Shown here in pieces: positions 1 through 39,689 of a stretch of 64,000 bases of DNA (its first letter is position 1; the number at the start of each line of letters is the position of its first letter). This DNA comes from Eledone cirrhosa. Taxonomy: Eukaryota. The position numbers and the translations under genes were made by a program. Under the pieces are notes generated by a model. It was not told where the DNA came from, did not search any database, and saw nothing but the letters and a program-made list of their open reading frames with translations. The DNA lies in contig OZ024745.1 of assembly GCA_964016885.1 (NCBI GenBank), forward strand, positions 11,284,001 to 11,348,000. The letters are read 5' to 3'.

Positions 1-3000
1 ACTAAACATATGGTAGTAACTAAACCTTACAGTAACTAAACATATGATAGTAACTAAACATATGGTAGTAACTAAACATATGGTAGTAACTAAACATATG
101 ATAGTTGCTAAACATCTGATAGTAACTAAACATATGATAGTAACTAAACATATGGTAGTAACTAAACCTGACAGTAACTAAACATATGATAGTAACTAAA
201 CATATGATAGTAACTAAACATATGATAGTAACTAAACATATGGTAGTAACTAAACATATGGTAGTAACTAAACATATGGTAGTAACTAAACATATGTTAG
301 TAACTAAACATATGATAGTAACTAAACATATGATAGTAACTAAACATATGATAGTAACTAAACATATGATAGTAACTAAACATATGGTAGTAACTAAACA
401 TGACTAACTAAACATATGATAGTAACTAAACTTATGATAGTAACTAAACATATGGTAGTAACTAAACATATGATAGTAACTAAACATATGGTAGTAACTA
501 AACATATGGTAGTAACTAAACATATGATAGCAACTAAACATATTATAGCAACTAAACATATGATAGTAACTAAACATATGATAGTAACTAAACATATGGT
601 AGTAACTAAACATATGATAGTAACTAAACATATGATAGTAACTAAACATATGATAGTAACTAAACATATGATAGTAACTAAACATATGGTAGTAACTAAA
701 CCTGACAGTAACTAAACATATGATAGTAACTAAACATATGATAGTAACTAAACATATGACAGTAACTAAACATATGGTAGTAACTAAACATATGATAGTA
801 ACTAAACATATGGTAGTAACTAAACATATGATAGCAACTAAACATATGACAGTAACTAAACATATGGTAGTAACTAAACATATGATAGTAACTAAACATA
901 TGGTAGTAACTAAACATATGATAGTAACCAAACATATGATAGCAACTAAACATATGACAGTAACTAAACATATGGTAGGAACTAAACATATGGTAGTAAC
1001 TAAACATATGGTAGTAACTAAACATATGGTAGTAACTAAACATATGATAGTAACTAAACATATGACAGTAACTAAACATATGGTAGTAACTAAACATATG
1101 ACAGTAACTAAACATATGGTAGTAACTAAACATATGGTAGTAACTAAACTTATGGTAGTAACTAAACATATGGTAGTAACTAAACATATTGTAGGAACTA
1201 AACATATGGTAGTAACTAAACATATGGTAGTAACTAAACATATGGTAGTAACTAAACATATGATAGCAACTAAACATATGACAGTAACTAAACATATGGT
1301 AGTAACTAAACATATGGTAGTAACTATACATATGATAGCAACTAAACATATGGTAGTAACTAAACCTGACAGTAACTAAACATATGGTAGTAACTAAACA
1401 TATGGTAGTAACTAAACATATGGTAGTAACTAAACATATGACAGTAACTAAACATATGGTAGTAACTAAACATATGGTAGTAATTAATCATATGGTAGTA
1501 ACTAAACATATGGTAGTAACTAAACATATGATAGTAACTAAACATATGATAGTAACTAAAGATATGGTAGTAACTAAACTTATGATAGTAACTAAACATA
1601 TGGTAGTAACTAAACATATGGTAGTAACTAAACATATGGTAGTAACTAAACATATGATAGCAACTAAACATATGGTAGTAACTAAACATATGATAGCAAC
1701 TAAACATATGATAGTAACTAAACATATGTTAGTAACTAAACATATGACAGTAACTAAAAATATGACAGTAACTAAACATATGGTAGTAACTAAACATGAC
1801 AGTAACTAAACATATGGTAGTAACTAAACATATGATAGTAACTAAACATATGGTAGTAACTAAACATATGGTAGTAACTAAACATTTGGTAGTAACTAAA
1901 CATATGATAGCAACTAAACATATGGTAGTAACTAAACATATGACAGTAACTAAACATATGGTAGTAACTAAACATTTGGTAGTAACTAAACATATGATAG
2001 CAACTAAACATATGATAGTAACTAAACATATGACAGTAACTAAACATATGATAGTAACTAAACATATGATAGTAACTAAACATATGGTAGTATCTAAACA
2101 TATGGTAGTAAATAAACATATGACAGTAACTAAACATATGGTAGTAACTAAACATATGGTAGTAACTAAACATATGACAGTAACTAAACATATGGTAGTA
2201 ACTAAACATATGGTAGTAACTAAACATTTGGTATTAACTAAACATATGATAGCAACTAAACATATGATAGTAACTAAACATATGACAGTAACTAAACATA
2301 TGGTAGTAACTAAACATATGACAGTAACTAAACATATGATAGTAACTAAACATATGTTAGTAACTAAGCATATGATAGCAACTAAACATATGACAGTAAC
2401 TAAACATATGGTAGTAACTAAACATATGATAGTAACTAAATATATAGCAGTAATTAAACATATGATAGTAACTAAACATATGGTAGTAACTAAATATATG
2501 GTAGTAACTAAACATATGACAGTAACTAAACATATGATAGTAACTAAACATATGGCAGTAATTAAACATATGATAGCATCTAAACATATGATAGTAACTA
2601 AACATATGGTAGTAACTAAACATATGACAGTAACTAAACATATGGTAGTAACTAAACATATGATAGTAACTAAACACATGGTAGTAACTAAACATATGAT
2701 AGTAACTAAACATATGGTAGTAACTAAACCTGACAGTAACTAAACATATGATAGTAACTAAACATATGATAGTAACTAAACATATGATAGTAACTAAACA
2801 TATGGTAGTAACTAAACATATGATAGTAACTAAACATATGGTAGTAACTAAACATATGGTAGTAACTAAACATATGATAGTAGCTAAACATATGATAGTA
2901 ACTAAACATATGGTAGTAACTAAACCTTACAGTAACTAAACATATGATAGTAACTAAACATATGGTAGTAACTAAACATATGGTAGTAGCTAAACATATG

Positions 3001-5189
3001 ATAGTAACTAAACATATGATAGTAACTAAACATATGGTAGTAACTAAAGATATGGTAGTAACTAAACATATGATAGTAACTAAACATATGATAGTAACTA
3101 AACATATGATAGTAACTAAACATATGATAGTAACTAAAAATATGGTAGTAACTAAACATGACAGTAACTAAACATATGATAGTAACTAAACATATGATAG
3201 TAACTAAATATATGGTAGTAACTAAACATATGATAGTAACTAAACATATGGTAGTAACTAAACATATGGTAGTAACTAAACATATGATAGCAACTAAAGA
3301 TATTATAGCAACTAAACATATGACAGTAACTAAACATATGGCAGTAACTAAACATATGGTAGTATCTAAACATATGGTAGTAACTAAACATATGATAGCA
3401 ACTAAACATATGATAGCAACTAAACATATGATAGTAACTAAACATATGATAGTAACTAAAGATATGGTAGTAACTAAACATATGATAGTAACTAAACATA
3501 TGATAGTAACTAAACATATGATAGTAACTAAACATATGATAGTAACTAAAAATATGGTAGTAACTAAACATGACAGTAACTAAACATATGATAGTAACTA
3601 AACACATGATAGTAACTAAACATATGGTAGTAACTAAACATATGATAGTAACTAAACATATGGTAGTAACTAAACATATGGTAGTAACTAAACATATGGT
3701 AGTAACTAAACATATGATAGCAACTAAACATATGATAGCAACTAAACATATGATAGTAACTAAACTTGATAGTAACTAAACATATGGTAGTAACTAAACA
3801 TATGATAGTAACTAAACATATGATAGTAACTAAACATATGATAGTAACTAAACATATGATAGTAACTAAACATATGGTAGTAACTAAACCTGACAGTAAC
3901 TAAACATATGATAGTAACTAAACATATGATAGTAACTAAACATATGACAGTAACTAAACATATGGTAGTAACTAAACATATGATAGTAACTAAACATAAG
4001 ACAGTAACTATACATATGATAGTAACTAAACATATGATAGTAACTAAACATATGACAGTAACTAAACATATGGTAGTAACTAAACATATGATAGCAACTA
4101 AACATAAGACAGTAACTATACATATGGTAGTAACTAAACATATGATAGTAACTAAACATATGGTAGTAACTAAACATATGTTAGTATCTAAAGATATGAT
4201 AGCAACTAAACATATGGTAGTAACTAAAGATATGATAGTAACTAAACATATGATAGTAACTAAACATATGATAGCAACTAAACATATGACAGTAACTAAA
4301 CATATGGTAGTAACTAAACATATGATAGTAACTAAACATATGGTAGTAACTAAACATATGATAGCAACTAAACATATGACAGTAACTAAACATATGGTAG
4401 GAACTAAACATATGGTAGTAACTAAACATATGGCAGTAACTAAACATGACAGTAACTAATCATATGACAGTAACTAAACATATGGTAGTAACTAAACATA
4501 TGGTAGTAACTAAACATATGGTAGTAACTAAACATATGGTAGTAACTAAACATATGGTAGGAACTAAACATATGGTAGTAACTTAACATATGGTAGTAAC
4601 TAAACATATGGTAGTAACTAAACATATGGTAGTAACTAAACATATGGTAGTAACTAAACATATGGTAGGAACTAAACATATGGTAGTAACTAAACATATG
4701 GTAGTAACTAAACATATGGTAGTAACTAAACATATGATAGTAACTAAACATATGGTAGTAACTAAACATATGGTAGTAACTAAACATATGATAGCAACTA
4801 AACATATGACAGTAACTAAACATATGGTAGTAACTAAACATATGGTAGTAACTAAACATATGATAGCAACTAAACATATGACAGTAACTAAACATATGAT
4901 AGCAACTAAACATATGGTAGTAACTAAACCTGACAGTAACTAAACATATGGTAGTAACTAAACATCACAGTAACTAAACATATGGTAGTAACTATACATA
5001 TGATAGCAACTAAACATATGGTAGTATCTAAACCTGACAGTAACTAAACATATGGTAGTAACTAAACATCACAGTAACTAAACATATGGTAGTAACTATA
5101 CATATGATAGCAACTAAACATATGGTAGTAACTAAACCTGACAGTAACTAAACATATGGTAGTAACTAAACATCACAGTAACTAAACAT
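1..5189. repeat. 18-bp tandem satellite (ACTAAACATATGRTAGTA), running off the left edge of the window
   Basis: Uninterrupted 18-bp period with GGT/GAT/GAC variants and occasional 16-bp units (AAACCTGACAGTAACT, AAACATCACAGTAACT). The MIVTKH/FSYYHM ORFs are translations of this repeat. Confidence 0.98.
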
Positions 5190-7361: not shown

Positions 7362-7565
7362 GGTACAGCGACCCGCCTTGAAGCGGAAAAGGAGATAGAC
7401 AAATACCGGGTATTATCCGGCCACTTCCTCTTCGCACTGGTCACCATCGATACCTCAGGGGTTCTCGGACCCCATATTGTCGAGCACCCCCAGAAGATCG
7501 GAACGTCAACATCTCGTCTGAGGAAGGAGCCCCTTAAGGTGAGGTGGCTGTTGCAGCAGGTGTCG

Positions 7566-7568
<3 letters not shown>
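7362..7568 (+). mobile_element. Fragment of a CRE-like non-LTR retrotransposon (C-terminal restriction-like endonuclease region)
   Basis: Open frame ...EAEKEIDKYRVLSGHFLFALVTIDTSGVLGPH...KIG...KEPLKVRWLLQQVSL. It aligns by eye with the 12063-12326 fragment and with the KY..L...F....E/DT.G..G...IG...EP....WL.Q.VS pattern of CRE-type C-termini. Confidence 0.7.
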
Positions 7569-7614
<46 letters not shown>

Positions 7615-7618
<4 letters not shown>

Positions 7619-8590
7619 AGTTAATATAAATTAATTGTTTCTACTTTTGGCACAAGGCCAGCAATTACCCAGTGCATTACTGGTACTTTATTTTATCGAC
7701 CCCGTAAGGATGAAAGGCAAAGTTAACCTAGGCGGGATTTGAACTCAGAATGGCAAGGGCCGTAACTCTATGCATCAAAGCATGGCATCCAACCCTCTAC
7801 CGATACTGCCAATTCACCGCCCAAGTTAATATAAATTAATATATGATAAACACATAAGTGTTTGTATTGTAAAAGACGAAGTTAGCTAGAATGAAATAAA
7901 CTAATTCAAATAAATATAGTTTGCCTGTCTCGATTTAAAATAATAAATCAATAAAAACAAACCCATATTGGCAATAACCGTGATACCTGGACAAATTTAA
8001 ATTTCAAAATCCAAACCTGTTCCGCAGACGAATTTGAATTTCAAAACCCAAATAAGTTTCGCAACGATAGTATAAAAAAAATTAATTGTAAAGGACTGTT
8101 TGAGTTTATAACTCTAAATATAATATAATATTACGGCTCCTTTTGTTGGGCTAATTTTTAATCCCATATAAACGGCTGTTATTTCTAGCGCCATGCGTAT
8201 GAGATAGTTAGTGAGTGGGAAACCACGTGCGTTTGCGCTTGTACACCAGACCTCCAAAAATATTTCGAGGTGAAACATCCTAATTTTCTGGATACCTGTT
8301 GATGAACACAGAAAATGGAATCTTTCACATTTTTTTATACTATCGTTGCGAAACTTATTTGGGTTTTGAAATTCAAATTTGTCTGCGGAACAGGTTTGGA
8401 TTTTGAAATTTAAATTTGTCCAGGTATCACGGTTATTGCCAATATGGGTTTGTTTTTATTGATTTATTATTTTAAATCGAGACAGGCAAACTATATTTAT
8501 TTGAATTAGTTTATTTCATTCTAGCTAACTTCGTCTTTTACAATACAAACACTTATGTGTTTATCATATATTAATTTATATTAACTTGTA
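7615..8590. repeat. Long inverted repeat (~260-bp arms, 7822-8079 and 8330-8590); fold-back or MITE-like, with the left arm interrupted by a SINE
   Basis: The arms are reverse complements with one mismatch seen. The right end TTAACTTGTA matches TACAAGTTAA at 7615, upstream of the SINE. Confidence 0.9.
7636..7821 (-). mobile_element. tRNA-derived SINE with 19-bp target-site duplication
   Basis: The minus strand has an A box (TGGCAGTATCGG), a B box (GAGTTCAAATCC) and the central GCCTTTCATCCTTACGGGGTCGATAAAATAAAGTACCAG motif. It is flanked by CAAGTTAATATAAATTAAT at 7617-7635 and 7822-7840. Confidence 0.93.
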
Positions 8591-8672
8591 TTTCACGGCT
8601 CAGAAATGCTTCTTTCTTTGAGCTAATTAATTGTAAAGGACTGTTTGAGTTTATAACTCTAAATATAATATA

Positions 8673-8751
<79 letters not shown>

Positions 8752-8833
8752 ACAGCGACACCTGCTGCAACAGCCACCTCACCTTAAGGGGCTCCTTCCT
8801 CAGACGAGATGTTGATGTTATATATATATATAT

Positions 8834-9108
8834 TGTTATGCTTTGGGAGGGTCATGTTGCCAATAAGAAACACACGCACCAGTTGCTTTCACTCAAATTA
8901 ATTATAAATTAAATTTATAAATTTAAGAATTTATAAATTTCCGGTTGGTTGGTTGGTTCCACAACCAGACGATTGTTCATATATTGTCAAAGTTCTTTCG
9001 TCACACATTCTGTGACCTCTTCAGTGACTGGGGATTCTTTTCTTTGTTTTGTGTCTCTCCTTTGTTCTGTCCTACGCCATCTTGTTTGATGGCGTAGGAC
9101 AGAACAAA
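8834..9108 (-). mobile_element. Short interspersed element carrying a hammerhead motif (Penelope-like pLTR or retrozyme-like family), with a terminal 21-bp fold-back
   Basis: Nearly identical to 33831-34056. Related TGTTATACTTG(G) ends occur at ~20296 and ~63984. The hairpin arms are 9061-9081 and 9088-9108. Confidence 0.7.
8986..9028 (-). ncRNA. Minimal type I hammerhead ribozyme (imperfect)
   Basis: Minus strand reads GUCA-CUGAAGA-g-GUCACA gaaug UGUGAC-GAAA-GAAC-UU-UGAC. It has a 4-bp stem I, a 6-bp stem II with one extra G after A9, and a CUU cleavage triplet. Confidence 0.6.
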
Positions 9109-9589: not shown

Positions 9590-10210
9590 TATATAATATT
9601 AAAATATAAATATTAATAAAATAGATGTTCTTTTGATCAATTACATTTTATTATACATATTTCGGATGTACAACAGTACGTCCTCATCAGACAAAATATA
9701 ATGATACATGACATACCCTGAGATGTTAAATGGTTAAGATTTAATCAAGGTAGTGATTAACCTAAGAGAAAATTTAACATATATACCCTAATTATGAGAA
9801 AATGCGAATACGTAATAAATTCATTAGAGAATGTGAGTAAGAAAAACGTTGCTTACTATGATACTACAATATATCTAGGAAAACATCTCATGAATCATAA
9901 CAGCCAGTGATAGCCACTGGAAAAGGATTTATAAAGAGGGAAAGATAAAGGGGGTGATATATGCTGAAGGAGATTTTTTCCGAAAGTTAAACGGTTAAAT
10001 TTGAAAATATTTAATTTATAATATTAGGGTGAAGACTCAATATTTCGGGATTTTTTTGCTGGTTATTTATATATTAGTTTTATAAATTCTATAAGTGTGT
10101 TAACATTTCTAAGCTTCTGAGTTTTATGAGGGTAACATTTAAAGGATTTAGCTGGCACATCAAGAATGAAATATTATACTGTTGATTATTTTCCTAAATT
10201 TAAACTTTAA
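9590..10210 (-). mobile_element. Decayed 3' end of a Penelope-like element (possible GIY-YIG C-terminal remnant, then pLTR with hammerhead)
   Basis: The stop-interrupted minus-strand frame ...NNQQYNISFL...KLRSLEMLTHL...INNQQ... loosely resembles the L..LE....LN.Q end of PLE endonucleases. It lies upstream of the hammerhead at 9645-9697. Confidence 0.35.
9645..9697 (-). ncRNA. Minimal type I hammerhead ribozyme
   Basis: Minus strand reads AUUUUGU-CUGAUGA-GGACGUAC uguu GUACAUCC-GAAA-UAUGUA-UA-AUAAAAU. It has a 7-bp stem I (one GU), 7 of 8 pairs in stem II, a near-palindromic stem III and an AUA triplet. Confidence 0.82.
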
Positions 10211-14000: not shown

Positions 14001-16968
14001 TTTGTTTCTTTTATTTGCCACCAGGGCATCAAAAGTGGGACAAGTACAAAGGGGGGAGTTTACACAAAAAGGCGTCCTCAATAAGGAGGAGGCAATAACA
14101 ATATATAAAAATAAAATAGAATATTACAAAAAATTAAATTTATAACAAAATCCTCAATAGAGAGGAGGCGCCTTGGGGGGTCGCACACACCCCCGAAAAA
14201 AGTGTGCAACCCTTTTCCTCAGGAGCACAGAGAGGGGGTGCTCCCTCGTTCCTTCCTCCCTTCCACCTACAGGCTTATGTAAAGAGAAGGCCCATTCACA
14301 CGGGCCATTCTCGCCACTTTCACCCACCTTTCATAAAAACGGCTGGGGTGGAGCACCTCTCTCTCCATCCTGATCCTTCTTCCGAAATAATATCGGAAGA
14401 AACGGACCAGTTGTTGGCCAGAGAGAAAGGTGCCTGACCTCAGTCCTTTCAGACGCGTCCACCATACAACTTCTTTCACCATGGCTATTACGCACAGAAA
14501 CACCGCCTCTCCTTCATCTTTGAAGTGGGGAGGCGGCTTGATCATTACAATAGACTCGGTGGTCAACCGGATCGGTCCCACCCTTGACAGCAGTTGTTCG
14601 ACATAGCCCCACAGATCGGCTACGCCCGAGCAGTGTACCAATGCGTGTGCAACGGTTTCCTCGTCGCACACGCATCTGGGACATATCTTTTTGGCGGGGT
14701 CCCTACCCGGGCGCCCGTGTCTGTAGAGCTTTTCTCGAACGGGTAGAGCCCCTCGGTAGCACTGCCAGGCCAGGGACTTCTGGAAGTTGTCCATAGGTCC
14801 CGGGCTGAATGTCCTACCGAACAGGCTGGCCAGTTCGTCCTCCTCCATGTCTAGGGCTTCTCCGAGGGCGTCGTCGCACCTGCTGCGTACCAGCCCTCTA
14901 TAGAATGTTGCGGTGGAGTCTCCACTGATAACCGGGTCCGCCTGCCAGAGGGCGGTGAGCGCCTGGGCACACTCAGTGTGCCAGGCGCCCAGTTTTCTCG
15001 GTCTTTGCTTGACCCAGGATTGCAGCTCGGTGAGTGAGACGAGTCTGGGAAAGGTTCGTCTCACAAGCGAGGACCACACCGGTTGACCGGTGAGGAATAC
15101 GTAGAGGTGCCGTAGCCTTAATGCGTGTTTACGCATCATTAGCCACGGCATCCCCAGCCCTCCTTTCGAAGGGTGTTGACAGCAGATGGATCTCCTCACC
15201 ATAGGAGCCCGCCTCTTCCAAAGGAATTGGAAGAGCGCGCGCTCCATCTTGGCGAGGATTTCCCTTGGGCACTACGGTCAGGCGGTAGTAGATGACGGAC
15301 GCTATATAGGTGTTCGCCACCTCCGCCCGACCTTTCAGGGATAGTTTGCAACTGGCCCACTTCCGGGTCAGTGCAAACACCCTGTTCGTAACCTCCGCCC
15401 AGTTTTTCTCCACCTGGAGGTCCGGTCCGAACCAGACCCCGAGCAACTTCACCGGGCCCTCCGTCCAGCGTCCGACGACGCCATCGGAGGGCATCGGTAT
15501 GCTCCTCCACGTGCCGAGTTGCAAACCGATCGACTTGTCCCGGTTCAGCTTAGCCCCTGTGAACCTTTCGTACTCCTCCAGTAAGGTGCCGACCGCCTCG
15601 ATTTCGGAGGCCGTCGACACCATTACTGTCACGTCATCGGCGTAGGCCGACACTGCTTTCCGCAATCCCGGTTCCAAAGGGATGCCCTGCAACAACTCCA
15701 ACTTCCGCAATAGTGGCTCGAGAGTCAACACATACAGAAGGGAGGATAGAGGGCACCCTTGTCGGATGGACCGCGCGATTTTGAACGGCTCCGAGAGGTA
15801 GCCGTTCACCTTGACCCTAGAGCAGATGCGGCTGCTGTGCATAGCAGTGATCCAGCCCCTGAAAACGGGTCCGAAGCCTGCCGTCGCTAGCACCGCATCC
15901 AGGTAACTATGGTCGACCCTATCGAACGCCTTAGATTGATCCAAGTTGATCAGAGCCCCACCAAAGCCGGGTTCGTTCCCAACCCTCTCTATGATGTATC
16001 GCATGAGGTGGAGGTTGTCATGGATGGACCTGGACGGGATAGCGCATGTCTGCGCATCTCCCACCAGGTTGCCCACGACAAGCGCCAACCTCTTTGCTAG
16101 CACCTTGGCCAAAATCTGTAACTCTGTATTTAGCAGAGTTATGGGCCTGAAGTTACTTATTTCGTCCCCTTGTTCTCGTCCTTCCTCACTAGCGTGACTA
16201 CGCCCTTGGTCACAGTACAGGGAATTCTCCCGTTCTGTTGCCAGTTGCAGTAGACCGCCTCGAGGAGATCGGGGAACAAGTCCGGCATAGCTAGATATAA
16301 TTCGTAAGGAAGACCATCGAGATCCGGGGATTTGCGTTTGCCGCATTGGCTCAGCACGTCCTCTATCTCAGCGGCCGAAATCGGCTCCTCGCAGGACTTC
16401 GCCTCCCTGTCCGAGAGACGCGGCAGGCCGTCGAGGTATGGACCGAAGTCCACGTTCCCAACCGGCTCCCCGCCCCTCCCGAACAGTCGGGCAAAGTGCC
16501 TTTGAAAGGCCTCACACATCTGCTTAGGCTCAAGAATCGCCCGTCAATCCAGGTCTTGCAAAGACCGGATGGTGGATTTAGTTCCACTGTTGGCCTCTGT
16601 CACGCGGGCCCAGCTAACAGCTTTGGCCCCCTCGTTCCCTAGAGCACGTATTTTACTTCGGACAACGCAGCCTTCGTGCTTCGCGTCGAAAAACTGGCTC
16701 AAAGCCGTTCTCGACGCTAGCACTCTGGCCACGTCGCCGCTTCTAATTGCCTCTTCTACTCTATCTATTAGCTCCCTCTCCTTCCTATTCCTATCCGCAG
16801 CTAGAACCTTACTAAATTCTATCGAGACTAATCTAATCTCTCTCTTTAGAGATACCCACCACCTGCTGTTGACGATCGCTCCAGTCCACCGTTCCTTAAC
16901 TAACGTACTAATCCGATCCCTGTAAGCTCTACTTGCCGGCAAGGACAAGTTGAGCTTCCAGTAACCGG
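14001..16968 (-). mobile_element. 5'-truncated L1/Tx1-type non-LTR retrotransposon (inactive)
   Basis: The minus strand starts at PGYWKLNLSL, the post-endonuclease motif. It has RT motifs (KSPDLDGLPYE, NFRPITLLN, DQSKAFDRVDH, RQGCPLS, YADD) and a CCHC zinc knuckle (CPRC...ETVAHALVHC). The 3' UTR ends AATAAAAGAAACAAA. Confidence 0.95.
14267..16968 (-). pseudogene. Disrupted LINE ORF2 (RT plus zinc knuckle; endonuclease lost)
   Basis: Pieced together from ORFs 16544-16948, 16157-16519, 15129-16346 and 14267-15247. There is an in-frame TGA at 16544-16546 and frameshifts near ~16165 and ~15265. Confidence 0.9.
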
Positions 16969-17164
16969 CTCTCCCTGTCTGTCTGTCTGTCTGTCTGTCT
17001 ATATGACGATCTCTCTCTCCCTCCCTCCCTCCCTGTCTGTCTGTCTGTCTATATGACGATCTCTCTCTCCCTCCCTCCCTCCCTCCCTCCCTCCTGTCTG
17101 TCTATATGACGATCTCTCTCTCTCTCCCTCCCTCCCTCCCTGTCTGTCTGTCTGTCTATATGAC

Positions 17165-19110: not shown

Positions 19111-19575
19111 AGAAGAAGATTATTAATTTTGGGTTCACATTATCGCTTTTCTGCACTAAAAAGCGGTAATGTGAAACTTTAATAACGATGGGAGTAAACA
19201 GCAATTTAATCGGTGTTATATATATACTTATGTATGTAGATCCGTATATATATGGCGGTTGGACAAACAATTCAATTAAGTGAGACTATTTCATGACCAC
19301 AACCCCTTTTATGGTTGTTCAGACAATGGGAAACAAGCAAGGGAGAGAACTCCTATAATTTGAGACGATCCAAGTCTTTTGGAATAACTTAAGGCAATAT
19401 AGTGTGAGTGGACTAAAAGCAGCGTCGGTATGTTTCGATTTTAGATCTCATAAGCGAAGCATCTTTAGCAAGTTAAACTGGACTGGGCAAGTAGATATAG
19501 GAAAGATCTCTCTCTCTCTCTTATATATATATATATAATATATAAGATCAAAAGATGGTTAAAGGAGTTCCATGT

Positions 19576-19644
19576 ATTTTATTATGCGCATTTCAAAAAC
19601 AAACATCATCATGCAATAATATTTGTGTTTTCATCAGATAAAAC
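19576..19644 (-). ncRNA. Type I hammerhead ribozyme with minimal stem III (left arm copy)
   Basis: Exact reverse complement of 19690-19758. Confidence 0.85.
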
Positions 19645-19689
19645 AGGAGAACATGATATGAAGGCTAAAAAACACTTGTGGATAGTGCA

Positions 19690-19758
19690 GTTTTATCTGA
19701 TGAAAACACAAATATTATTGCATGATGATGTTTGTTTTTGAAATGCGCATAATAAAAT
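19690..19758 (+). ncRNA. Type I hammerhead ribozyme with minimal stem III (right arm copy)
   Basis: Reads GUUUUAU-CUGAUGA-[36-nt stem II, 15 of 16 pairs including GU, loop GCAU]-GAAA-UGCGCA-UA-AUAAAAU. Stem III is the palindrome AUGCGCAU, with predicted cleavage after 19751. Confidence 0.85.
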
Positions 19759-19885
19759 ACATGGAACTCCTTTAACCATCTTTTGATCTTATATATTATG
19801 TATACTCCAGTCCTACAAACTGTAGAGTGCTTCTTATCCGATATCTGCATTGCTTTATTGTACTACAATAAAACTCACCTCCTAC

Positions 19886-19970
<85 letters not shown>

Positions 19971-20046
19971 GTATATATATATATTAAGTAAGAATATTTT
20001 TCGAAACAGCGAGTTGGTTTGAAATTATTAGAAATGTAAGCTATCG

Positions 20047-20232
20047 CCGTATTTTGACTAAAGAAATTAAAGAAATTGTTTAGCCTGATAGTGGGGTTAA
20101 GAACCCTCGGAGAAATAGAAAAAGATGAGTATTGACGTACATGTACGTCAATACTCATCTTTTTCCATTTCTCCGAGGGTTCTTAACCCCACTATCAGGC
20201 TAAATAATTTCTTTAATTTCTTTAGTCAAAAT

Positions 20233-20236
<4 letters not shown>
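20047..20236. repeat. Spacerless palindrome with 95-bp arms
   Basis: Centre is GACGTACA|TGTACGTC at 20141/20142. Two mismatches seen. The right arm abuts (TA)n. Confidence 0.95.
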
Positions 20237-20742: not shown

Positions 20743-20743
<1 letters not shown>

Positions 20744-20866
20744 TTACATGAATCAAAGTTCTGTTTAAACCATTTATTCACTTACAATTGTTTCTTCCAA
20801 ACCTCGGTTTGGAAGAAACAATTGTAAGTGAATAAATGGTTTAAACAGAACTTTGATTCATGTAAT
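20743..20866. repeat. Perfect hairpin with 61-bp arms and a 2-nt loop
   Basis: Arms are 20743-20803 and 20806-20866; the loop is TC. Confidence 0.95.
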
Positions 20867-25079: not shown

Positions 25080-25135
25080 ACTACCTGATGAGGTCATAGC
25101 CATTCAATGGCTATCATCGAAATATATATAGCAGT
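25080..25135 (+). ncRNA. Minimal type I hammerhead ribozyme
   Basis: Reads ACUAC-CUGAUGA-GGUCAUAGCCAU uca AUGGCUAUCAUC-GAAA-UAUAUA-UA-GCAGU. Stem II has 11 of 12 pairs, stem III is palindromic, the triplet is AUA and stem I has 4 of 5 pairs. AAUAAA follows. Confidence 0.78.
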
Positions 25136-29180: not shown

Positions 29181-29230
29181 TTTATTCAATCAAATAACAT
29201 TGATCCAATGGGAGGTAGAGGAAGGTCGAT

Positions 29231-30553
29231 TATATCGTCCCCAATATATATAGTCCCCAATATATATCGTCCCCAATATATATAGTCCCCAATATATATA
29301 TAGTCCCCAATATATATAGTCCCCAATATATATCGTCCCCAATATATATCGTCCCCAATATATATATCGTCCCCAATATATATCGTCCCCAATATATATA
29401 GTCCTCAATATATATCGTCCCCCATATATATCGTCCTCAATATATATAGTCCCCAATATATATAGTCCCCAATATAAATAGTCCCCAATATATATAGTCC
29501 CCAATATATATATAGTCCCCAATATATATTGTCCCCAATATATATATAGTCCCCAATATAAATAGTCCCCAATATATATAGTCCCCAATATATATAGTCC
29601 CCAATATATATATAGTCCCCAATATATATATAGTCCCCAATATATATATAGTCCCCAATATATATATAGTCCCCAATATAAATAGTCGCCAATATATATC
29701 GTCCCCAATATATATATAGTCCCCAATATATATAGTCCCCAATATATATATCGTCCCCAATATATATATAGTCCCCAATATATATAGTCCCCAATATATA
29801 TCGTCCCCAATATATATATAGTCCCCAATATATATATCGTCCCCAATATATATCGTCCCCAATATATATATCGTCCCCAATATATATAGTCCCCAATATA
29901 TATATCGTCCCCAATATATATTGTCCCCAATATATATAGTCCCCAATATATATATCGTCCCCAATATATATTGTCCCCAATATATATATCGTCCCCAATA
30001 TATATATAGTCCCCAATATATATAGTCCCCAATATATATTGTCCCCAATATATATCGTCCCCAATATATATATCGTCCCCAATATATATCGTCCCCAATA
30101 TATATTGTCCCCAATATATATAGTCCCCAATATATATTGTCCCCAATATATATCGTCCCCAATATATATAGTCCCCAATATATATATCGTCCCCAATATA
30201 TATTGTCCCCAATATATATAGTCCCCAATATATATATAGTCCCCAATATATATAGTCCCCAATATATATATCGTCCCCAATATATATTGTCCCCAATATA
30301 TATAGTCCCCAATATATATATCGTCCCCAATATATATAGTCCCCAATATATATATAGTCCCCAATATATATAGTCCCCAATATATATCGTCCCCAATATA
30401 TATAGTCCCCAATATATATATCGTCTCCAATATATATATAGTCCCCAATATATATTGTCCCCAATATATATATCGTCCCCAATATATATATCGTCCCCAA
30501 TATATATTGTCCCCAATATATATATTGTCCCCAATATATATTGTCCCCAATAT
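29231..30553. repeat. 17/19-bp minisatellite [(AT)n (A/C/T)GTCCCCA] embedded in a SINE remnant
   Basis: The GTCCCCAAT anchor is separated by variable (AT) runs. The flanks are SINE sequence. Confidence 0.96.
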
Positions 30554-30725
30554 AAAAGGCGAAGTTGACCTGAGTTGAACTCAGTACCCTGACCACTCAG
30601 CTAATCAACATCTCCCTTCAATGAAGTAATACGAACGTGATACTGTATGATCATTGTCCCGGCAAAATACTCGGCTATATTCTCAAAAATGAAGTAAAAA
30701 TCATTATACAGGGTGGTCCAAATAG

Positions 30726-36558: not shown

Positions 36559-36621
36559 GTCACTCTACTTGTACTGAGTCTAGTTTTTCCGGTTTGTGCA
36601 ACACCCCCTCCCCACTTACAA

Positions 36622-38450
36622 TGCACACAGCTCACACAACACACACAACGCACACACAGAACAAACACAACACACACAACACACACAACGCACACACACA
36701 ACACACAACACACACAACACACACAACACACACACAACACACACAGCTCACACAACACACAACACACACATCTCACACAACACACAACACACAACACACA
36801 CAGCTCACACAACACACAGCTCACACAACACACAACACACAACACACACAACACACACAGCTCACACAACACACAAAACACAACACACACATCTTACACA
36901 ACACACAACACAGACAGCTCACACAACACACACAACACACACAGCTCACACAACACACACAACACACACAACACACACACCTCACACAAAACACAACACA
37001 GACAGCTCACACAACACATACAACACACACAGCTCACACAACACACACAACACACACAACACACACAGCTCACACAGCACACAACACACAACACACACAA
37101 CTCACACAACACACACAGCTCACACAACACACACAACACACAACACACACAACACACACAGCTCACACAACACACACAACACACACAGCTCACACAACAC
37201 ACACAACACACACAACACACACAGCTCACACAACACACACAACACACACAGCTCACACAACACACACAACACACACAACACACACAGCTCACACAACACA
37301 CACAACACACACAGCTCACACAACACACACAACACACACAACACACACAGCTCACACAACACACACAACACACACAACACACACAGCTCACACAACACAC
37401 ACAACACACAACACCCACAGCTCAGACAACACACACAGCTCACACAACACACACAACACACACAGCTCACACAACACACACAACACACACATCTCACACA
37501 ACACACACAACACACACAACACACACATCTCACACAACACACACAACACACACAGCTCACACAACACACACAACACACAACACCCACAGCTCACACAAGA
37601 CACACAGCTCAGACAACACACACAGCTCACACAACACACACAACACACTCATCTCACACAACACACACAACACACACAACACACACATCTCACACAACAC
37701 ACACAACACACACAGCTCACACAACACACACAACACACAACACCCACAGCTCACACAACACCCACAGCTCAGACAACACACACAGCTCACACAACACACA
37801 CAACACACACATCTCACACAACACACACAACACACACAACACACACAACACACACATCTCACAAACACACACAACACACACAACACACACAGCTCACACA
37901 ACACACAACACACACAGCTTACACAACACACACAACACACAACACCCACAGCTCACACAACACCCACAGCTCACACAACACACAACACACACAGCTCAGA
38001 CAACACACACAGCTCACACAACACACACAACACACACATCTCACACAACACACACAACACACACAACACACACAACACACACAACACACACAGCTCACAC
38101 AACACACAACACCCACAGCTCACACAACACACAACACACACAGCTCACACAACACACAACACCCACAGCTTACACAACACACAACACACACAGCTCACAC
38201 AACACACACAGCTCAGACAACACACACAGCTCACACAACACACACAACACACACATCTCACACAACACACACAACACACACAACACACACAACACACACA
38301 GCTTACACAACACACAACACACACAGCTTACACAACACACACATCTCACACAACACACACAACACACACAACACACACAACACACACAGTTTACACAACA
38401 CACAACACACACAGCTTACACAACACACACAGCACACACAACATACACAT
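36622..38450. repeat. Complex CA-rich satellite (ACAACAC / CAGCTCACACA modules)
   Basis: Modules of 7-9 bp interleave with CAGCTC/CATCTC anchors. The 631-aa and 629-aa H/T/N/Q ORFs are artefacts of this repeat. Confidence 0.95.
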
Positions 38451-39275: not shown

Positions 39276-39689
39276 TTTTGACGTTGAGAATATTATGACG
39301 TCAATAATAGTCATAAACATATATTCACACACACATATATATATATATATATACTCTCATATACTCATATACATACACTCACACGCACACATACGCACAC
39401 TCATATACGGACACACACATACTCACATACGCATACTCATATTCGCACACTCCCACGCACACATAAGCACACTCACACACATACATACATACACGTACAG
39501 TTTTGATTGATGTAAGTAATCAACAATTTCAGACATGTGACTGTTTAGCCCCTGGTCAGCCATGGTCAAGCAGACCTTAGTCAAATGTCTTATGATCAAC
39601 ACTAGGTAAAGCTGTCTAAGGTAGTTTTGGCTTCTATTTCTAACCATTCAAGTTTCCAGATAGTGGCTGTCTCATCATGGCTGTAGTGT

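Follow-up and report, generated by a model that had tools for sequence, protein, structure and literature searches.

Two hammerhead motifs head to head in a (TA)n microsatellite: a probable truncated insertion of a high-copy, Penelope-like retroelement

The closest described systems to the locus reported here are the complex insertions of endonuclease-positive Penelope-like elements (PLEs), for which an inverted 5'-truncated copy, a one-sided tail and targeting of (TA)n have been reported (PMC8557442), head-to-head being the most frequent inverted arrangement of PLE copies (PMC3846280). For the origin of such insertions, a PLE protein has been described as extending both strands from two reverse transcriptase (RT) start sites, one on each side of the tail (PMC11167929), while an alternative proposal invokes self-priming on an antisense template (PMC3846280). 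Minimal hammerhead ribozymes are described as dimer-dependent, a single motif having been assayed without detectable activity (PMC4209133; PMC6765202), and in Schistosoma mansoni dual minimal hammerheads lie on opposite strands 100–700 bp apart (PMC4209133). Our locus resembles the PLE complex insertions (PMC3846280; PMC8557442) in its head-to-head layout with 3' ends outward and unequal truncation, and in having a tail at one end only, a microhomology join and a likely (TA)n target, as in the Neptune and Naiad clades; unlike the published cases it has no open reading frame (ORF), its tail measures ~85 nt rather than 30–40, and it shows no readable target-site duplication.

In the window, by which we mean the whole 64,000-nucleotide stretch of DNA analysed, we saw that positions 19535–19644 and 19690–19799 are reverse complements, identical at 110 of 110 positions and separated by a 45-nt spacer, just as a preliminary description of this DNA had claimed for a perfect 110-bp inverted repeat; with one mismatch permitted, the arms lengthen to 115 nt. 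Contigs of the public runs X1, X4 and X5 were compared with 19112–19886 at 85% likeness; from a fourth run, X22, raw Hi-C reads sampled at about 1 in 100 yielded 0 matching reads. The features of the locus are as follows.

19523–19538, no strand: (TA)n run at the left end, seen in the sequence; a likely target, continuous with the minus copy's inner 3' end
19535–19695, minus strand: 5'-truncated repeat copy, made up of 51 nt of native upstream sequence, the hammerhead and a downstream part; tail absent
19575–19645, minus strand: minimal type I hammerhead in native context, with an 8-bp stem I, core 19637–19631 and cleavage position 19583
19645–19689, minus strand: spacer of 45 nt, native to the minus copy and lying upstream of its hammerhead
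19690–19695, no strand: 6-nt microhomology GTTTTA at the head-to-head junction, from contig matches and their divergence point
19690–19758, plus strand: minimal type I hammerhead in truncated context, with a 7-bp stem I, core 19697–19703 and cleavage after 19751
19690–19888, plus strand: 5'-truncated repeat copy including the tail, from contig pieces 19690–19804, 19771–19856 and 19802–19886
19800–19888, plus strand: ~85-nt tail of the plus copy only; other family copies end at 19804, followed by (TA)n
19889–19985, no strand: (TA)n run at the right end, seen in the sequence; likely target site

With a probability of about 80%, we read this locus as a dead insertion in a (TA)n microsatellite, produced by a high-copy Penelope-like retroelement whose hammerhead-bearing end (pLTR) is present as two 5'-truncated copies placed head to head. 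The earlier remark that Penelope-like elements are known to carry inverted pLTRs names this same explanation, the inverted 5'-truncated copy with its tail being a published layout (PMC8557442; PMC3846280). The two halves come from one repeat family: the spacer is native to the minus copy and the tail to the plus copy. Contig pieces span the border between left arm and spacer at 19575–19683 (X1), 19590–19695 (X5) and 19613–19695 (X4), and since such crossing pieces were found in all three runs we take the spacer to be sequence native to the minus copy, upstream of its hammerhead. Agreement between family contigs and the window ends after 19695 (34 loose ends in X1, 2 in X4 and 3 in X5), indicating that the six letters 19690–19695 are common to both halves; GTTTTA occurs both upstream in the minus copy and in the 5' strand of stem I of the plus copy. 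Since the native upstream sequence also matches 19690–19695, placement of the junction is ambiguous over 6 nt. The claim that the boundary of the repeat coincides to the base with stem I fits the plus copy, with its 7-bp stem I, but neither this ambiguity nor the minus copy, whose 8-bp stem I reaches into the spacer and is predicted to continue for a further 5 bp past an internal loop.

Part of 19545–19870 was present in 20 of 24 listed public runs, which carried 16 organism labels, came from 15 studies and included none listed as RNA. In X1 the summed contig depth, which is a marker of abundance and not a copy number, was ~3e5–1.7e6 across 19554–19886, whereas most of the left flank had 0–79 and a single short patch in it 1155; judged by this depth, 19554–19886 in its entirety is a very high-copy repeat. 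Family depth drops toward the 5' end, being 2.3e6 immediately downstream of the ribozyme and 1.0e6 upstream of it, which is what 5' truncation predicts. Since loose ends at 19804 entered TA repeats (58 in X1, 2 in X5) and the right arm runs natively into 19800–19886, the family has two 3' ends, at 19804 and ~19886, one represented in each arm; both adjoin (TA)n. The 19535–19888 insertion itself has (TA)n on both sides, and a target-site duplication is unreadable within such a run. The 110/110 identity bounds the divergence of the arms at <2.7%, and a minority allele, G at 19730, is common to both (A accounts for 62% of X1 depth). As one young event from one source suffices for such identity and a shared minority allele, the arms are, from their sequence, best interpreted as duplicate copies from one source, laid down in a single, fairly young event. 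A blastn search within the window found no further family copy and no second same-strand copy, and none of the X1, X4 and X5 pieces listed bridged the locus's own junction, the unique flanks being incompletely covered in these runs. Exact-pattern scans of metagenome contigs and prokaryote genomes gave 0 matches, and among the papers listed on hammerhead ribozymes and octopus the family was absent from titles and abstract openings, although supplements may contain it.

Each arm has an outward-pointing CTGATGA...GAAA...TA core. A type I descriptor applied over 5001–36000 found three motifs (one in each arm and one at 9690 on the minus strand), and because none appeared in any of 100 local dinucleotide shuffles we do not attribute these motifs to chance. 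In the plus hammerhead, stem II (19704–19739) is followed by GAAA (19740–19743) and then by a palindromic stem III. This stem III consists of two A-U pairs around GCGC, inside the self-complementary ATGCGCAT, with a predicted pairing probability of ≤0.001; the ATGCGCAT self-duplex is predicted at -10.5 kcal/mol. As monomers, the minus and plus copies have predicted probabilities of 6e-5 and 6e-7, respectively, of adopting the catalytic fold. The preliminary description had presented the hammerheads as complete and intact, which is right for the cores and their outward orientation but not for completeness, given the 2-bp stem III, an A-U pair at 10.1–11.1 and fold probabilities of at most 6e-5. 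Similarly, the stem II given as 16 bp does span 16 positions, of which 15 are paired (11 A-U, 1 G-C and 3 G·U) and one is a C-U mismatch. On these predicted folds, both hammerheads are of the minimal type I, whose cleavage depends on a partner in the same strand. They share with metazoan PLE minimal hammerheads (PMC4209133; PMC6765202) a type I topology, an intact core, a long stem II and a palindromic stem III; unlike those described, they have A10.1-U11.1 instead of G-C and no extra base after A9 (so that 2 of 4 hallmarks of PLE minimal hammerheads are absent), a stem II of 16 rather than 7–8 positions, and cores only 59 nt apart. Sister subfamilies, seen at contig loose ends, carry C before GAAA. 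Searches with Rfam covariance models returned 105 matches in one case (E ≤ 1) and 27 in another (E ≤ 10), none of them to a hammerhead family; they were chance miRNA and snoRNA hits arising from hairpins and microsatellites. Single-arm folding z-scores (-0.83 and 0.09) were uninformative.

Membership of the family in the Penelope class is likely, against which stands the tail of ~85 nt where 30–40 is usual. None of 134 frames scanned with Pfam gave a Penelope-type match, and there was no RT or GIY-YIG ORF at the locus; the 134 were drawn from 169 candidate frames, the remaining 35 being 33 alternate LINE frames and two of low complexity. Matches at E ≤ 0.01 were limited to 4 of the 134 frames (RVT_1 and zf-RVT of a nearby LINE, and two below the cut-off). 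The LINE, at 14267–17101 on the minus strand, is 5'-truncated and frameshifted, matches RVT_1 and zf-RVT, and is flanked by a (CTGT/CTCC) minisatellite. A sigma-70 promoter scan performed at chance level (5 versus 3.5), such a scan being inapplicable to an animal genome, and was set aside.

As to how the insertion might have formed, we propose that both target strands were nicked and then extended. A first cDNA would have been primed at a TA-like patch near 19790–19804 and copied to 19695, and a second would have started from the outer end (19888) and extended to ~19690, after which their complementary 3' ends, GTTTTA and TAAAAC, would have annealed and been filled in. This two-cDNA model would account for the tail sitting on the arm that lacks the spacer, where a single fold-back from the locus presumably could not place it, and the two RT start sites, described in vitro for one Penelope-like element, fit the locus better than simple self-priming. 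The ribozymes would be passengers, normally acting as same-strand dimers and unable to pair up at 19535–19799, and any read-through RNA would fold into the 110-bp hairpin. By itself the locus carries little weight, being one among many truncated insertions with a layout already published; it is useful as a mechanistic trace, in that cDNAs primed from opposite strands would suit both the 6-nt join and a tail borne by the arm without the spacer.

For sister junctions we counted 19 of 20 X1 joint rows, mostly at ~6–25x depth, in a list that is filtered by short contigs and omits both junctions identical to the window's and pairs with long upstream sequence on both sides. Because all 19 joints fuse antisense to sense, many with native upstream letters missing from the window, we regard them as independent head-to-head copies. 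A plus copy starting at 19690–19696 was seen in 0 of 19 (0.75 expected; 95% upper bound 15%), and no other junction kept both ribozymes (0/19), so that this survey of 19 junctions spoke against a preference of inversions for breaking at stem I. The breakpoints were scattered but not evenly so: seven of the 19 plus-copy starts fell in the 3' strand of stem II (~1.7 expected) and nine minus-copy ends in that strand or in GAAA/stem III (~3.0 expected), a clustering with P ~0.001 in bins chosen post hoc. Another group of minus-copy ends (7/19) lay 45–63 nt upstream of stem I, near the locus's own end, and is partly a short-contig artefact. An in-register fold-back on stem II was rejected, the junction sums being 39452–39481 versus 39444 expected.

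On either strand the full hairpin is predicted at -171 kcal/mol, which is 87–93 kcal/mol below the best predicted fold with a hammerhead formed, in agreement with the suggestion that a transcript would form a long dsRNA hairpin in competition with the catalytic fold. The ribozymes are divergent, and from the sequence read-through RNA of either strand makes the antisense arm first. Since the antisense arm comes first and the hairpin is predicted to outcompete the hammerhead fold, there is nothing to switch, and the self-silencing switch envisaged earlier, whose arm is in addition of the dimer-dependent type, is not supported; for a ribozyme to be freed, transcription would have to begin within the spacer, and that ribozyme would then be without a same-strand partner. 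Because it is predicted to form a long hairpin, read-through RNA could plausibly be an incidental ADAR or small-RNA substrate at most. Octopus has been reported to have very high hyper-editing and dsRNA potential, and a lizard to have edited Penelope copies (PMC5625713). Like palindromic repeats that serve as ADAR substrates (frog Harbinger, for example; PMC5625713), the locus is predicted to self-fold into a perfect hairpin of ~100 bp; unlike theirs, its hairpin is known from sequence alone. Six of 20 listed variants reached ≥5% in X4 and <2% in X1, and all six were A>G or T>C, the signal being family-wide and X4 a small run from another sample that is not on record as RNA; two of the six recur in X5 and one fits a subfamily. 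One subfamily present in X4 has a stem II whose base is G+C-rich and an altered stem I pair, and this subfamily is possibly expressed and edited. From the breakpoint cluster in stem II, the 20743–20866 palindrome described below and the A>G/T>C excess in X4 we tentatively raise, with considerable doubt, a wider idea in which the long stem II would set an RT stop and so generate thousands of perfect head-to-head hairpins with their centres in its 3' strand, a major dsRNA source for the heavy A-to-I editing seen in this animal group, the present locus being a rare instance in which both cDNAs got past the stem.

A similar layout could be produced by a non-autonomous short element (retrozyme-like or a hammerhead SINE, ~270 nt) moved by a Penelope-like RT and inserted head-to-head, which we consider unlikely. 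The minus-copy ends 45–63 nt upstream of stem I, in so far as they are not a short-contig artefact, may mark the 5' end of such a template, no ORF was found in the 134 frames scanned, and retrozymes have been proposed as PLE derivatives (bioRxiv 10.64898/2026.07.22.740005); with non-LTR retrozymes (PMC7229834; bioRxiv 10.64898/2026.07.22.740005) the locus shares its shortness, lack of coding sequence, type I hammerhead, high copy number and an animal genome. However, retrozymes as described are defined by same-strand tandem repeats, whereas the locus is an inverted pair, and same-strand tandem units were found neither in the window by blastn nor as a go-back joint among the joints listed. In addition, the native upstream sequence continues for at least 17 shared letters beyond 19695 in X1 and X5. 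We think it very unlikely that the locus is an assembly or library fold-back artefact: although the arms are identical at 110/110 positions, the junction and unique flanks are seen in none of X1, X4 and X5, and the window holds several perfect palindromes, the right arm enters a native tail missing from the left arm, where a fold-back would have copied the left flank. Comparable junctions also occur as contigs of single-copy depth (most ~6–25x) in an independent read set, and both arms share the minority G at 19730.

That the hairpin is a selected self-silencing switch, or a dedicated siRNA/ADAR hairpin, seems highly improbable to us. Its predicted stability would suit such a role, as would the X4-specific variants (6/6 A>G or T>C), which editing would give if X4 were RNA; against this, X4 is a different sample whose RNA status is not on record, the signal extends over the family, and two of the six variants occur in X5 and one looks like a subfamily difference. 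Moreover, the monomer fold is improbable, the antisense arm is made first, both ribozymes are present in 0 of 19 sister junctions, and conservation of the locus was not seen in X1, X4 or X5. We can scarcely credit a later local inverted duplication of one pre-existing copy by a replication template switch: the 6-nt microhomology would fit it, and 6-nt inverted partners are frequent in this AT-rich element, where 41 positions of 250 nt start a 6-mer with an inverted partner, but the outer ends are the family's two natural 3' ends, each abutting (TA)n, and a random switch would not give both. The head-to-head insertion of a Penelope-like pLTR remains our preferred reading.

Microsatellites and satellites abound in the window, which is animal DNA and apparently octopus-like, and it contains three further inverted repeats of the same layout, in which one end lies at or near (TA)n, an unshared extension lies opposite and no full hammerhead is present. 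The palindrome at 20047–20236 has 95-bp arms with 2 mismatches and no spacer, (TA)n on its right and a 62-nt unshared extension on its left, and no hammerhead was found in it. At 20743–20866, perfect 61-bp arms are separated by a 2-nt spacer, each arm beginning ~10 nt before GAAA-CAATTG-TA; this motif reads as the 3' half of another minimal hammerhead, inside whose stem II the inversion likely took place. At 7822–8588, 259-bp inverted arms with 1 mismatch and a 249-nt spacer are followed by an 89-nt extension that reaches (TA)n. A SINE-like insert with a 19-nt duplication lies at ~7636–7821, and an outer perfect 68-bp inverted pair facing TA runs occupies 7506–8815. At 9061–9108 we saw perfectly inverted 21-bp repeats around a 6-nt loop. 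On the minus strand, 9640–9702 holds a minimal hammerhead that belongs to another family and is better formed (stem I of 12 bp, G10.1-C11.1, stem III of 2 bp). A degenerate hammerhead-like motif at 25085–25135 on the plus strand combines an intact core with a weak stem I; the unit containing it ends at (TA)n, and the motif sits inside a ~60-bp direct duplication (24815 / 25212). Satellites occupy 1–5000, 29200–30600 and 36600–38450, as well as 39700–63000, where ~23 kb of a 30-bp satellite shows strong strand skew (GC skew ~0.82).
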